This document shows, in pieces, positions 12,557-17,511 of a DNA stretch of 41,345 nt. The notes under the pieces are model-generated. The model had not been told where the DNA came from and made no database searches. It was given only the letters and a program-made list of their open reading frames with translations. The stretch's first letter is position 1; the number at the start of each line of letters is the position of its first letter. The stretch comes from a virus. Taxonomy: Duplodnaviria > Caudoviricetes. The translations under genes were made by a program, and so were the position numbers. The stretch is from positions 1 to 41,345 of the IMG/VR virus record IMGVR_UViG_3300012943_000044. One strand, given 5' to 3'.

Positions 12557-13194
12557 CAGCTCGTCCCGCGAGGTCGAGCCCTCGCGTGCTCGCGGGCCAG
12601 CGCGTCTTTGACGGCCTTCGCGAAGTCGGGCTGAGCGGCGGTGGGGTCGACGCCGACGTGGACGATGTCGACCCGCACCTCGCCCCGCTCGGGCCCGACC
12701 CCTCGCGCCGGCGGCGACACGGGGGCACCGCTGCCGGGCGAGGGGTCGGAGCTAGTGCCTGCACCGGGGGCGGTCAGTCCCTCGGTGCTTTCGCGCGCCG
12801 CTCTGCCAAGCGCGGCGGCAGAGCCGGGCGTCGGCTCCTTCCCGGCTACCGCCGGGGGTCTGACGGCCGAGCCCACCGGCGGCAGCGAGACGTCGGCCAG
12901 GCTGGCCAGGTCACGCAGGGCCGCCTCGATGTGGAAGCCCGCGGAGTCCCGCCAGAAGGAGACCAGGTCGGCGTTGCCGTGCGGGATCGACGCCGGGTCG
13001 ACACCGCGCTCCAGCACGGCGAGGGCCTGGGCGAGGAGACGCTCGCTGTCGCGGATGATCTCGCCGATGCGGGGCACGGGCGGGGTCGAGTGCTGGTGTG
13101 GCTCGCCGGTCGCGTAGTGGTCGACCTCGTCGAACTCCGGCAGGCGGCCGGGGCCGGTCGGGCCGTCGGGCTGGCCGGGCGGGTGCGTGGTCAT
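12556..13194 (-). CDS. Hypothetical protein, first gene after cro
   Basis: ATGA overlap with cro stop; helical N-half, low-complexity C-half. Confidence 0.6.
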   Translation of the reverse strand: MTTHPPGQPDGPTGPGRLPEFDEVDHYATGEPHQHSTPPVPRIGEIIRDSERLLAQALAVLERGVDPASIPHGNADLVSFWRDSAGFHIEAALRDLASLADVSLPPVGSAVRPPAVAGKEPTPGSAAALGRAARESTEGLTAPGAGTSSDPSPGSGAPVSPPARGVGPERGEVRVDIVHVGVDPTAAQPDFAKAVKDALAREHARARPRGTS

Positions 13195-13445
13195 GCTGCA
13201 CCGGCCGTGGCTGGCGTGGCCGCGCCCACCAACTCGGTGAGCGGGCAGTCGAGTGCGGCGGCGATCTGGGCAAGTTCGTCGATGGTGAATGCGACGTCGC
13301 CGCACATGCGGCGGGAGAACACGGACTGCGGCATGCCGATCCGCTCGGAGAGCGCGCGGCCCGACATCTTCTCTCGGGCCATCGCGATGCGAACGGCGCC
13401 AGCCACCGCTTCACGTGTCCCGCTGAGCGGGTTGTTTTCTGGCAT
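13191..13445 (-). CDS. cro: Cro-like HTH regulator
   Basis: VRIAMAREKMSGRALSERIGMPQSVFSRRMCGDVAFTIDEL; divergent from repressor. Confidence 0.85.
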   Translation of the reverse strand: MPENNPLSGTREAVAGAVRIAMAREKMSGRALSERIGMPQSVFSRRMCGDVAFTIDELAQIAAALDCPLTELVGAATPATAGAA

Positions 13446-13566
13446 GGGACAGTTCTACCCGCCCACCGGGCGGGCCGTCAACCCGCTAGGCGGGTAAACA
13501 TGTCGGGAATCGGTCTGGCATATCCAGGGGTTGCGCCTGACCCGCTGGGCGGGTCATCATCTCTCC
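13418..13566. promoter_or_regulatory. Lysis/lysogeny switch: divergent leaderless promoters and four ACCCGC-N3-GCGGGT operators
   Basis: Operators 13418-13432 (1 mismatch), 13457-13471 (2 mismatches), 13481-13495 and 13540-13554 (perfect). P(cro): TTGACG-18-TAGAAC-6-ATG. P(rep): TTGCGC-18-CATCAT-6-ATG. Confidence 0.8.
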
Positions 13567-14058
13567 ATGAGTACGGAAGCTAACGGTGCGTCGGGATGGC
13601 TCCGACAGGGCACCGCAGAGGAGATCCGCGTTCTCCTTGCTCGCCGTCGCATGAGCGCAGCCGAGTTGGCACGCCGCACGGGGATCAAGCAGAGCACCAT
13701 CAGCCGACGAATGACGGGGGAGACCGCCTTTGACCTGGACGATCTGGAGGCGATCGCGCGAGTCCTGGAGGTCGAGGCCATCGACCTACTGCCCAGGCCG
13801 ATCGGCTCGTCCCAGGGCGCGGGAAGGAGCAGCGCGCGTTCTGCGCTGAACGATAGTTCCTGCCCACCGGCACCTTCGACCGACCGCTTCCGAGTGACGA
13901 CCCCCAGGCCGAACGTCCGCGCCCACCGCCACGTGGCCACCAGCGGCAGCCCGTTCGGAGGAGGGCGCCGCGACGCCGTCCGGCCGGTATCGGCCGTCCC
14001 GTTCAACAAGCGGCGCCCGACACCGACAGGGCCAGGAGTTCGACCGATTCCCGCGTGA
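13567..14058 (+). CDS. Immunity repressor (XRE HTH) with long disordered C-terminal tail
   Basis: EIRVLLARRRMSAAELARRTGIKQSTISRRMTGETAFDLDDL; ATG 13567 lies 6 nt after a -10-like hexamer. Confidence 0.85.
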   Translation: MSTEANGASGWLRQGTAEEIRVLLARRRMSAAELARRTGIKQSTISRRMTGETAFDLDDLEAIARVLEVEAIDLLPRPIGSSQGAGRSSARSALNDSSCPPAPSTDRFRVTTPRPNVRAHRHVATSGSPFGGGRRDAVRPVSAVPFNKRRPTPTGPGVRPIPA

Positions 14059-14156
14059 GTGAACCTACGACCACGATCGAGTGACCACCGTTAAGCGGAC
14101 CCCGGGCCAGTGCGGACACACCACCCAGGGTCCTTGATCGCCCCAGGAGGCGACCC

Positions 14157-14384
14157 ATGAGCACCGTACCCACCACCGCACCGGCGCGACGCACCCACGG
14201 CAGCGTCGCCTACTACGCCGACCTCATCGGTGGCGCCTACCCCAGCGACAGCCTGATCCTGACGCTCGTCGACGATGTGGCGAACGATCGAATCCACGAC
14301 GTCACCGGCGAGGACCGGCTCGCCAACATCCGCAACCTGCTGGCCGCCGCCAAGCAGGTCCGCGCCGAGATGGCGGCCCGATGA
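14157..14384 (+). CDS. Hypothetical protein translationally coupled to integrase
   Basis: AGGAGG RBS; ATGA overlap with int. Confidence 0.8.
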   Translation: MSTVPTTAPARRTHGSVAYYADLIGGAYPSDSLILTLVDDVANDRIHDVTGEDRLANIRNLLAAAKQVRAEMAAR

Positions 14385-15187
14385 CCGACCTGATTGCCGC
14401 CTACCTCGGCCACCTCGCCGACCTCGGCCGCGCGGAGAGCACCCGCGACACCTACGCCGACATCCTGCGGCGGATGGACCGGCAGCTGCCCTACGGCCTG
14501 GTCTCGGCCTGCCAAGAGGAGCTGCACGCCTGGATCTTCTCCGACAGCCACGGCAAGGCCCACCGCAAGCTGTGCCGCATCGCCGCGAACGGCTTCTACG
14601 ACTGGGCCTGCAACCCCGCCGACCCGCGGCTGGACTTCAATCCGGCCGCCGCGCTGCCGCACGTCTCGGCGCCGCGCGGCAGGCCGAACCCGGTCACCGA
14701 GCAGCAGAAGCTGGAGATGCTGGCCCGGGCCGCCCGCCCGTACCGGGACTGGTTCCTGACGTCGTGCTTCACCGGTGCCCGCTGCACCGAGCTCGCCAAC
14801 CTGGACCGCGAGCACATCACCGAGCGGCGGGTGCTGCTGCACGGCAAGGGCGACAAGCCCCGGTACGTGCCCACCCACCCGCTGGTGTGGGCGCTCGCCC
14901 AGGACCTGCCGCCGGGGCCGCTGACCCTGGACCGGCGCGGGCAGCGGCTGACGCGGCAGCAGGTCAGCCACCGCGGCAACTACCAGCTGCAGAAGGTCCT
15001 CGGCCTGGTCGGTGTCCACATGCACCGGCTGCGGTCGACGTTCGGCACCGAGGCGTACGAGGCCACCCGGGACATCCTGGCGGTGCAGCGTCTCCTCGGC
15101 CACGCCTCGCCGTCGACCACCCAGATCTACGTCGAGGTCGGCGACGCGGCGCTGGAGCGCGCCGTGGCCGGGTTGCGTGCGGCCTAG
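14381..15187 (+). CDS. int: Tyrosine integrase/recombinase, short form without arm-binding domain
   Basis: TGARCTEL, HGKGDK, HRLR, LLGH and TTQIY catalytic motifs; 268 aa. Confidence 0.92.
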   Translation: MTDLIAAYLGHLADLGRAESTRDTYADILRRMDRQLPYGLVSACQEELHAWIFSDSHGKAHRKLCRIAANGFYDWACNPADPRLDFNPAAALPHVSAPRGRPNPVTEQQKLEMLARAARPYRDWFLTSCFTGARCTELANLDREHITERRVLLHGKGDKPRYVPTHPLVWALAQDLPPGPLTLDRRGQRLTRQQVSHRGNYQLQKVLGLVGVHMHRLRSTFGTEAYEATRDILAVQRLLGHASPSTTQIYVEVGDAALERAVAGLRAA

Positions 15188-15486
15188 ATCTGGTTCGGCC
15201 TGCGCTGCCGGTGCGGGACGGGCCCGGCGTTGCGTGGCGGTGCGACCGGGGTGGTGCTGTGATCGACCACCTCGGTCCGGGGCTCGCGGTCGGGGTCGAG
15301 GTGGTCGGGGCGGGCGACGACCAGGACGCCGGCGCCGTGGGACATGACGATCCCGGCGGCAGCGGCCCAGTCGCTGGTGACGACTCCGGCCACCTGATAG
15401 CCGCGCTCGGCGCAGTACTCGAGGCACTGCGACGCGTAGGTGGCCAGGTGGGCGGCGGCCGGGATGAATATAACGGCGAGAGTCAT
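15184..15486 (-). CDS. Degenerate serine-resolvase-like mini-domain protein
   Basis: AVIF...QCLEYCAERGYQVAGVV...GAGVLVVARPDHL follows the resolvase N-terminal pattern but lacks Y-x-R-V-S; GAAGGAAG RBS. Confidence 0.65.
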   Translation of the reverse strand: MTLAVIFIPAAAHLATYASQCLEYCAERGYQVAGVVTSDWAAAAGIVMSHGAGVLVVARPDHLDPDREPRTEVVDHSTTPVAPPRNAGPVPHRQRRPNQI

Positions 15487-15754
15487 GGGCTTCCTTCACG
15501 TTTCCGCAGGTGGGAGTGGCCGCGAGATGTCTGAGTTAACCCGCCTGTAACCGCAGCATGCATCCACCGTGACGACTGCCGAATCGGACTAGGAGTGCGT
15601 GAACCGCACTCATCAGACGTTCGGTCATCCGCCGACCGGATCCGGTCATCACCCATACGGACAGATCAGTGACACACCGTTGCTAGATCACTATCCATCG
15701 CCCACACTTCGGTCCTCGCGGCCGAAAACCCCCTGCTCACACGAAGGACGGACC

Positions 15755-16273
15755 ATGACCCACCCCGAGAACCAGCCGCCGGCCCAGCCCAACCAGTACT
15801 GGCCGCCGCAGCACCAGCCCGCCCAGCCGTACACCCCGCCGGTCGCGTACCCGCCCGCCGGTCCGCCGGCTAAGCCGCCGAACTCGAAGCTGGTCTTCTG
15901 GACGTCCGGCACCGGCGTGGTGCTGATGCTGCTCATTGCCTTCATCGGCGTGCTGATCCTCGTCGGCATCATCAACCGCATCGAGGGCCCCGCGTCGGCG
16001 AGCTTCGACACCACGGTGACCAGCTGCGAGGCGACCGGCACCAGCTCACTGGCGACGGCGACCGTCGGCCTGTCGGTGAAGAACGTCAGCAAGTCCACGA
16101 AGAGCGCCACGGTGAAGATCGAGTACCGCGACGGATCCGGGAGCCGGCTCGACACCGACACCGCCTATGTCCGCAACATCGCACCCGGTGACACCGCCCG
16201 GACCGAGGAGTCCACCATCCTCGACGCCGCACCGGCCGGGTCGATCGAGTGCGCCGTGATCGGGGTCAGCTAG
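15755..16273 (+). CDS. Membrane protein: Pro-rich N-terminus, one TM, extracellular FxLYD-like domain
   Basis: GAAGGA RBS, ATG 15755; VKN...KIEYRDGSGSRLDT...NIAPGDTA; Cys pair. Confidence 0.8.
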   Translation: MTHPENQPPAQPNQYWPPQHQPAQPYTPPVAYPPAGPPAKPPNSKLVFWTSGTGVVLMLLIAFIGVLILVGIINRIEGPASASFDTTVTSCEATGTSSLATATVGLSVKNVSKSTKSATVKIEYRDGSGSRLDTDTAYVRNIAPGDTARTEESTILDAAPAGSIECAVIGVS

Positions 16274-16748: not shown

Positions 16749-16958
16749 ATGCCAGCGCGTAGGGACATCAGGCTCATGGGCCCGGCCGAGATCGGCCGCC
16801 GCCTGGGCGGGATCGGCCGGGCGCGGGTCTACCAGATCACCCAGCGGCGCAACTTCCCCGAGCCGATCGCGCAGCTGGAGATGGGCAACGTCTGGCTGGC
16901 CGAGGACGTCGAGGCCTGGGTCCGCCAGCACCGCCCGGAGCTGATCGACGAGGAGTGA
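16749..16958 (+). CDS. AlpA/excisionase-like DNA-binding protein
   Basis: LMGPAEIGRRLGGIGRARVYQI...FPEPIAQL..GNVWLAEDVEAW. Confidence 0.85.
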   Translation: MPARRDIRLMGPAEIGRRLGGIGRARVYQITQRRNFPEPIAQLEMGNVWLAEDVEAWVRQHRPELIDEE

Positions 16959-16983: not shown

Positions 16984-17511
16984 ATGCCCCGCATGACTCC
17001 CCGAACTCTCGCCGCTGCCGCCGTGGGCGCGCTCGCCGCGCTGGCCCTCGCGGCGCCCGCACAGGCCGCAGCCGCAGCACCGTGCGCCGCCTACCGCTAC
17101 ACCGGCGGGCAGGTCACCCTCTGCGTCGATCACCCCGGGGCGGCCGACGTCGACTGCCCGGACGTCGACTGGCAGGTCACCCTGTTCGACAAGACCGTCG
17201 ACCCGTGGCAGCTCGACGCGGACGGCGACGGGTTCGGCTGCGACGGCGAGGGCACGGTCGTACGGCCGGCGGATCCGAAGCCGAGCACGTCGCCGTCGGT
17301 GAAGCCGAAGCCGTCGACCAGCAGCAAGCCGAAGCCGAAGCCCTCGAAGACCAGCAGCACCCCGGTCCCGGTCGCCGAGCAGGTCGACGCCGGGCCGCAG
17401 CTGCCGGTGACCGGGCCGGGCGTGCCGCTGGCCGCCGGTGGACTGCTGCTGCTGGCCGGAGCGGTGGGCGTCGTCGTGGCCCGTCGGCGCCGGGCCAGGT
17501 TTGAAGCCTGA
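16984..17511 (+). CDS. Secreted, sortase-anchored surface protein with Excalibur-like Ca-binding motif
   Basis: Signal peptide (AQA); DVDC...DPWQLDADGDGFGCD; PKPS linker; LPVTG plus TM plus RRRRAR tail. Confidence 0.85.
   Translation: MPRMTPRTLAAAAVGALAALALAAPAQAAAAAPCAAYRYTGGQVTLCVDHPGAADVDCPDVDWQVTLFDKTVDPWQLDADGDGFGCDGEGTVVRPADPKPSTSPSVKPKPSTSSKPKPKPSKTSSTPVPVAEQVDAGPQLPVTGPGVPLAAGGLLLLAGAVGVVVARRRRARFEA

Follow-up and report, generated by a model that had tools for sequence, protein, structure and literature searches.

The region described here lies in the virus record IMGVR_UViG_3300012943_000044, which derives from a soil metagenome run and was analyzed over its whole length of 41,345 bases (hereafter the window; completeness about 90%, G+C 70%). 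Its subject is a pair of convergent genes, one encoding a short tyrosine integrase of 268 amino acids (Int; 14381..15187, plus strand) and the other a protein of 100 amino acids, here called the mini-protein (15184..15486, minus strand), together with the immunity genes that precede the integrase: a repressor gene (rep; 13567..14058, plus strand) and, divergent from it, a gene for a Cro-like helix-turn-helix (HTH) protein (13191..13445, minus strand). The minus strand carries the structural and lysis genes. The named relatives of the mini-protein come from Actinoplanes, Paractinoplanes and Micromonospora, and for this reason we take the host to be, probably, a member of the Micromonosporaceae. 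An earlier note, made from the letters of the window, had described the mini-protein as a repurposed serine-recombinase fold acting as directionality factor, integrase inhibitor or decoy; this interpretation is supported in part, and it lacked both the context of integration-dependent immunity and the degron-like tail of the mini-protein, which are treated below.

The mini-protein gene and its family

The mini gene has a ribosome-binding site of its own (GAAGGA, 4-5 nucleotides ahead of the ATG) and its stop codon overlaps that of the integrase gene in the CTAG at 15184-15187, both as first described. Third-position G+C content is 0.91-0.97 for the open reading frames (ORFs), the level of real genes, and the ratio of non-synonymous to synonymous substitution (dN/dS) in the mini core ranges from 0.09 to 0.84, being below 1 in 10/10 pairs tested. 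By these measures the mini gene is a gene under purifying selection and not debris. Its product consists of a four-part alpha/beta core of about 72 residues, a flexible linker that varies in the family (mostly 13-33 residues) and a basic C-terminal motif.

The first relatives were 19 of 68 candidates, and with a profile 81 of 7,993 were recovered. Of 1.84 billion representatives, 664 clusters (50% identity) belong to the family, and among the 150 listed nearly all have a length of 88-140 amino acids. A search of 401 genomes from the family of the Actinoplanes genome gave 89 matches in 78 of them (88 re-detected); a class-wide sample gave matches in 3/401 genomes only, all belonging to the family set. 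Row L011 was dropped as a false match (no hidden Markov model (HMM) match), and L004, L010 and L025 are one sequence. Pfam made no Resolvase call for 79 members, PHROG had no match for the window mini-protein, PADLOC and NCBIfam returned stray single matches only for 148 members, and no relative was present among the INPHARED phages. The open literature searched contained no paper on these proteins, and the family appears to be undescribed. Its near-invariant residues are C21, Y30, W40, P69, R70, E72 and R96, with R70 and E72 at 99%; W40, H62, P69, R70 and E72 are specific to the family and differ from the recombinase consensus. Natural tandem duplications of the mini domain within one chain occur in four members (P0082, P0100, P0170, P0183), a hint that the domain may work as a dimer.

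Descent from a serine recombinase

In a profile-profile comparison (HH) the mini family was matched to 22 domains gathered with a serine-recombinase seed at probability 90 and score 38, against 12.8 for the reversed control and at most 12.5 for 30 column shuffles. AlphaFold models (predicted local distance difference test 76.5 and 87.1) show strand-helix-strand-helix-strand across about 70 residues and then an extended tail. Two VIA structural searches of 48,161 chains each placed serine recombinases in the top four positions, the first at Z 7.2-8.4 and the second at Z 6.9-8.1 (root-mean-square deviation 2.1-2.6 across 70-71 residues). Unrelated alpha/beta folds follow closely, at Z 6.6-6.8, and the structure alone is therefore suggestive and not decisive; this gap is closed by the profile-profile result, by which the resemblance to serine recombinases is above chance. 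The Atlas rows for the mini-protein carry PF00239, and one of the genome matches of the family HMM, L057, is a true large serine recombinase. Against PDB the same HMM gave no significant match (E 0.19-0.6), serine recombinases being 3 of 9 weak sequence matches, and Foldseek against PDB and viral structures gave nothing at E <= 0.001, with serine recombinases ranking high. Taken together, these results show that the mini-protein derives from a serine-recombinase catalytic domain.

The catalytic set of serine recombinases is given as Y6, R8, S10, D36, R68 and R71 (PMC2794168), of which R8, S10, R68 and R71 are lost from the mini family. The YxRxS nucleophile motif occurs in 0/201 members, and when aligned to ISC1926 TnpA the family lacks the nucleophile loop; H replaces the R68-equivalent in 82% and P the R71-equivalent in 71% of the family, and an Asp near the D36 position survives in 57%. 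The structural alignment stops at about residue 94-106 of the targets, ahead of helix E, which in active enzymes joins the catalytic domain to the HTH and repacks in dimer/tetramer assembly (PMC9943657), and the mini model has no helix of four or more residues beyond residue 50. As judged from these losses, the mini-protein is a catalytically dead, miniaturized serine-recombinase domain, and the repurposed fold of the earlier note stands. The motifs quoted there (AVIFIPA, QCLEYCAERGYQV and VLVVARPDHL) are correct, apart from the G-x-x-x spacing ahead of VLVV, which was off by one residue; the statement that no DNA-binding domain is present holds for the HTH, but overlooks a conserved basic tail motif.

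A metal site formed by the two cysteines was rejected, because the same C-x3-C is found in the helix of true recombinases such as Bxb1 and L057. A second type of degenerate serine-recombinase domain, with LFSRA at the place of YxRxS and a weak PF00239 match (E 2e-4), is present in L058, L059, L060 and L067, in the last directly behind a ParB-family gene. Two further proteins, L189:3505-3957(-) in genome G177 and L064:1709-2467(+), have, behind a core that is resolvase-like but dead, an HTH-like region at the C-terminus, which the mini-protein itself lacks; L189, convergent with the same integrase clade, is likely an evolutionary intermediate, to judge from its domain arrangement.

Linkage to a short tyrosine integrase

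The neighboring enzyme is a tyrosine integrase, as had been stated: it matches PF00589 (E 1e-16), its active site is complete (R134, K156, H215, R218, H241, Y250) and it ends in an ssrA-like C-terminus (..GLRAA). Its best phage matches, at about 30%, include gp32 of mycobacteriophages of about 42 kb and Gordonia phages.

The linkage of the mini gene to short tyrosine integrases is confirmed in both viral and genomic sequences. A convergent short integrase was present in 8/8 viral loci found by the mini profile, and, starting from the integrase, the mini gene was present in 7/7 viral loci with at least 40% Int identity (four already known, one with an intervening ORF) and in 0/5 at 26-27% identity. 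The 88 genome copies were examined with their fetched flanks of 1.5-2 kb; an integrase was found in 26, convergent in 26/26, and the others include copies that stand alone in a chromosome, some that lie within other mobile-element operons, a few degenerate domains linked to ParB and the true recombinase. The reverse search from the integrase gave 42 matches in 30/401 genomes; 25 of them are the linked ones already known, which is circular because the integrase profile was built from them. The 17 further integrases divide into one with a diverged HTH-bearing relative (L189), 14 without a mini gene (two of them duplicates) and two cut by a contig end. Rows L179 and L182, which duplicate L178 and L181, were dropped, as were L191 and L194, whose sequence stops less than 200 bp from int.

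On a quick Int tree, presence of the mini gene is clustered (4 changes vs 10.8 when shuffled), and it stays adjoining int across 30-86% Int identity. Pairwise identities of mini-protein and Int correlate modestly (Spearman 0.28, permutation maximum 0.276), nearest neighbors agree in 17/36 pairs, and swaps occur, L114 and L115 having mini-proteins 81% identical where the Int of L115 shares no more than 55% identity with any other Int. Because of the losses beside further integrases and of these swaps, the mini-protein is regarded as dispensable and not strictly cognate; read from its distribution, it is an old, usually retained companion of the integrase. A prediction of the Int-mini complex gave no answer (score 0.00) and was counted neither for nor against binding.

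The immunity cassette

The Cro-like gene matches Pfam HTH_26/HTH_3, and the divergent cro/rep arrangement recurs in related phages and at prophage ends. At 13419..13553 lie four clustered CCCGCTNRGCGGG palindromes, which are likely operators; 7/8 strand-matches of the window fall within these 135 bp, a count that is partly circular because the pattern was read from this stretch itself. The repressor, recognized by Pfam and PHROG, is encoded in its phage (unintegrated) form as an HTH followed by a tail of about 85 residues with an RRDxxRPVSAVP..RRP motif, and this tail is conserved in related phages. In the window rep and int are co-oriented and cro is divergent; one or both of these HTH genes were found upstream, by profile, in the window and in 9/11 related phage loci mapped.

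In integrated relatives only the tail of the repressor remains upstream of int, and in 6/10 prophages followed over about 50 kb a truncated rep with cro is found at the far end, 27-46 kb off. Junction repeats measure 15 bp in G227, where the repeat lies at the end of the truncated rep, and 16 bp in G365. These split repressors place attP, the phage attachment site, inside the repressor gene of the relatives. For the window a candidate core, AACGATAGTT (13849..13858), is suggested by invariance and position: it is unchanged in 5/5 phages with Int at least 68% identical, absent in two more distant ones, and located 17-20 codons past an LLP motif, six prophage repressors ending nearby, 11-18 residues past LLP.

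Switches of this kind, with attP in rep, proteolytic control of Int and Rep and excision without a recombination directionality factor (RDF), are described in mycobacteriophages (PMC9262239, PMC3694055, PMC9934374), and how such prophages stay stable or excise is stated as an open question in PMC3694055. From its gene order and the split repressors of related prophages, the cassette has the architecture of integration-dependent immunity, in a new variant with a fourth gene. Window Int ends in LRAA and Rep in RPIPA; a terminal AA is present in 9/37 linked Ints, and some Rep tails end in VAA or YAA.

The bacterial site (attB) of the window phage was not found by DNA search of 301 genomes, nor as a 17-mer with one mismatch allowed in 61 genomes; the 10-mer gave chance-level matches in 5 genomes. 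No tRNA lies at either junction of G227 (L126/L234) or of G365 (L118/L216), and a tRNA scan of 10 phage loci found none. Several int-end junctions lie upstream of host genes. In 4/20 int-end regions (L117, L124, L128, L132) a tRNA is found 0.3-1.2 kb upstream of int with its 5' end toward the element, the reverse of the usual arrangement.

A C-terminal tail resembling a degron

The mini-protein of the window ends in RRPNQI (15187..15204, minus strand), an instance of an RRxxx-hydrophobic-COOH pattern that is enriched in the family. RR[PT]xx-hydrophobic is found near the end of 105/201 members vs 0/336 control ORFs (shuffle maximum 17), and RRxxx-hydrophobic forms the exact C-terminus in 60/201 members vs 2/601 control ORFs (shuffle maximum 7). 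In its loose form the motif is carried by 22/26 integrase-linked vs 17/52 solo genome copies, one large solo clade having lost the tail. This clade (L042-L053 and part of L075-L087) shares upstream sequence with the integrase-linked L030 and L032, and its domestication is possible, as its tail loss and solo position may indicate. Given the enrichment and a likeness to the C-terminal ClpX degron of MuA, RRKKAI (PMC8138137, Table 1), the mini tail is likely, by analogy, a protease-recognition tag of ClpX type.

A related motif, RRPxx-hydrophobic, stands near the end of the ORF upstream of int, that is, the repressor tail, in 21/45 loci vs 2/45 on the reverse strand. The repressor tails of the window (13567-14058) and of other loci combine RRDxxRPVSAVP with RRPxx-hydrophobic, with or without a terminal AA, and are candidates for a new degron on the strength of this pattern.

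Neighboring genes and intergenic regions

Between repressor and integrase lies an ORF of 75 amino acids (14157..14384, plus strand) with no Pfam or PHROG match and with homologues in L002, L006 and L131. The leader ahead of it (about 14092-14175) matches many genomes of the family, with E 2.5e-13 at best; three of these matches lie no more than about 0.6-0.9 kb from a mini copy that has no integrase. The leader possibly represents a promoter or an RNA element. On the other side of the pair, the intergenic region 15487..15754 contains conserved blocks that it shares with close phages (L002 and L003 at 70-76% identity; shorter ones in L004, L005, L017, L074 and L096) and likely holds divergent promoters for the mini gene and the membrane gene beyond it, as its position suggests. 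It contains no sigma-70 consensus; no terminator was found between int and the mini gene, and no universal upstream motif among 84 mini loci.

The gene at 15755..16273 (plus strand) encodes a single-pass membrane protein and is present in 5/32 loci mapped (window, L003, L005, L017, L130). It is followed, 1.6 kb from int, by an AlpA/excisionase-like winged-helix gene (16776..16958, plus strand), a conventional RDF candidate that matches phrog_2790 and phrog_66 'excisionase and transcriptional regulator' (E 9e-5 and 5e-4; Atlas AlpA-like 0.95) and occurs in 12/32 loci mapped, although the switch type as described is said to be without xis. Further along in this att-adjacent region, 16984-17511(+) encodes a secreted protein, seemingly anchored at its C-terminus, in which one stretch weakly resembles Excalibur.

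Possible role of the mini-protein

In integration-dependent switches it is the proteolysis of Int and Rep that settles the outcome, and a mini-protein with a tag-like motif of the repressor would therefore most simply act at the protease. Made from its own promoter, it would engage through its tail the protease that destroys tagged Int and the phage form of Rep, either as a competing substrate, a cIII-like decoy raising Int and Rep levels, or as a short-lived, co-degraded regulator, its abundance tracking that protease; oligomerization or partner binding would fall to the core and its near-invariant PRxE. By analogy, and tentatively, the mini-protein may thus, in the reading favored here, tune the switch through host proteolysis, adjusting the stability of Int and Rep and the choice between integrating and killing. 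The wider proposal, that a stripped serine recombinase came to fill, in a tyrosine-integrase switch, the vacant place of a cIII-like or RDF-like control element, where it would mimic the removable RRPxx-hydrophobic tag of the repressor, titrate the protease or contact Int and so set lysogeny and prophage stability, is held at a little below even confidence. Convergent transcription may in addition damp int in the prophage by antisense; the lack of a terminator allows it, yet it leaves the conservation of the protein unexplained.

Several observations weigh against a role at the protease of the switch. The fetched flank holds no integrase in 62/88 genome copies, and the mini gene is absent beside 14/15 of the further integrases that could be tested. 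The mini gene points in the late-gene direction, so that convergence with int is the default and orientation alone tells little. The window repressor tail, RRPTPT, misses the strict pattern, the LRAA of window Int is a different tag, and only 9/37 linked Ints have the terminal AA. The degron likeness concerns a six-residue pattern of E. coli ClpX, which actinobacterial ClpX may not read, and the 201-member set is related by kinship, its motif counts not being independent events.

The same integrase-free copies would be expected of a lysogen-expressed accessory gene (defence, exclusion or host regulation) that sits between the lysis genes and the integrase without a mechanistic link to Int and whose tail is a signal for its own turnover. 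This is nearly as likely as the role at the protease; it accounts for the intact solo chromosomal clade in varied contexts and for mini copies in other mobile-element operons, such as after DUF6907, and it has a precedent in Cluster N mycobacteriophages, in which 3-9 lysogenically expressed genes lie beside the immunity/integration region (PMC9262239). It fits less well with a mini gene that keeps its place by int while the membrane gene (5/32) and the excisionase-like gene (12/32) vary, with the one stray PADLOC match in 148 members, or with the recombinase ancestry and the HTH-bearing relative at the same position, which suggest a historic tie to recombination. Alternatively, an unstable mini-protein could bind the short integrase as a directionality factor or inhibitor acting by protein contact, as the earlier note had envisaged; tight adjacency, the modest co-divergence with Int, the conserved PRxE patch that needs a partner and the proposal of a protein-contact RDF as an evolutionary intermediate (PMC3694055) speak for it. 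We consider this unlikely, since integrases of this class are described as excising without an RDF (PMC3694055, PMC9262239), the window has a separate excisionase-like gene (16776-16958), mini-protein and Int reassort (L114/L115; agreement in 17/36 nearest neighbors) and most further integrases do without the mini gene (14/15).

In small resolvases helix E is followed by an AT-hook motif and then by the HTH (PMC9943657), and the basic tail could be the leftover of that arm in a small DNA-architecture protein that binds the minor groove near att or promoters. L196 has GGRP at that place and L189, with its C-terminal HTH, is convergent with the same integrase clade; a motif at the extreme C-terminus with a hydrophobic last residue is nevertheless more degron-like, the same motif is found in repressor tails removed by integration, and the mini-protein lacks a sequence-specific DNA-binding domain, all of which makes this improbable. 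Very improbable is the decoy of the earlier note, which would poison serine recombinases of host or competitors by entering their oligomers: the homologous core is kept, the catalytic domain of small resolvases has a regulatory dimer-dimer interface (PMC9943657) and serine recombinases are present in 5/5 family genomes tested, but the structural match ends ahead of helix E (residue 94-106 of targets), W40, H62, P69, R70 and E72 are not recombinase consensus, the linkage to tyrosine integrases is left unexplained and in none of 20 loci lacking an integrase does a serine recombinase lie within about 6 kb. That the mini gene is a decaying resolvase fragment without function is hardly credible; its dN/dS exceeds that of Int in most pairs (up to 0.84), but the 664 clusters, the new invariant residues, the 10/10 pairs below 1 and the conserved terminal motif tell against decay, and the homologues are not random fragments lacking linkage to integrases.

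Relation to known systems and significance

The cassette resembles the switches of BPs, Brujita and Charlie (clusters G, N and P) in its divergent cro/rep, in a rep co-oriented with a short integrase and in attP within rep (PMC3694055, PMC9262239, PMC9934374), and the Int of the window phage has an ssrA-like end. The cited accounts describe three-gene switches that lack xis, cII and cIII and use an attB at a tRNA (PMC3694055, PMC9262239, PMC9934374); the present cassette adds as its fourth gene the conserved pseudo-recombinase, convergent with int, and also an excisionase-like gene, and in many cases a small ORF separates rep from int. The repressor tails here bear RRPxx-hydrophobic, followed by AA in some and not in others, and the two junctions mapped in relatives are not at a tRNA. 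With PF00239 proteins (TP901-1, Bxb1, phiC31, IS607-type TnpA, Tn3 resolvase) the mini-protein shares the core fold, C-x3-[YC]-x3-G-[YW]-x-V and VVV-x3-D-x-L; it lacks the R8/S10 loop, the SG..RP loop, helices D and E and the DNA-binding domain, has R68 changed to H and R71 lost, and has gained W40, PRxE and the terminal basic motif. Xis/AlpA-type RDFs are likewise small accessory genes adjoining integrases, but they are winged-helix DNA binders, of which the window has a separate one (16776-16958), whereas the mini-protein is a recombinase-derived alpha/beta fold.

Lambda cIII is a competitive inhibitor of FtsH. It is also listed among the substrates of that protease (PMC10584840). The mini-protein is comparable to cIII and MuA as a small protein of a phage whose terminus would address a protease and, through proteolysis, determine lysogeny; fold, host and protease are unrelated, and the likeness is functional, by analogy. 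With the ClpX degrons of MuA and the Mu repressor the comparison is one of termini, MuA ending in RRKKAI (PMC8138137) and the mini-protein in RRPNQI.

Short integrases with small non-tRNA cores could serve as tools for the antibiotic producers Micromonospora and Actinoplanes. Integration-dependent switches have been described as minimal circuits of three genes; a fourth gene that is conserved, under selection and equipped with a degron-like tail shared with the repressor opens the question of prophage stability to a direct test. If the proposed role is true, the mini-protein would represent, in a present-day phage, the additional component that three-gene switches were predicted to acquire in evolution, an HTH-bearing intermediate having survived beside it; its tail would point to an unrecognized class of degrons in actinomycetes, and the fold of one recombinase superfamily would have been reused to regulate the other's.

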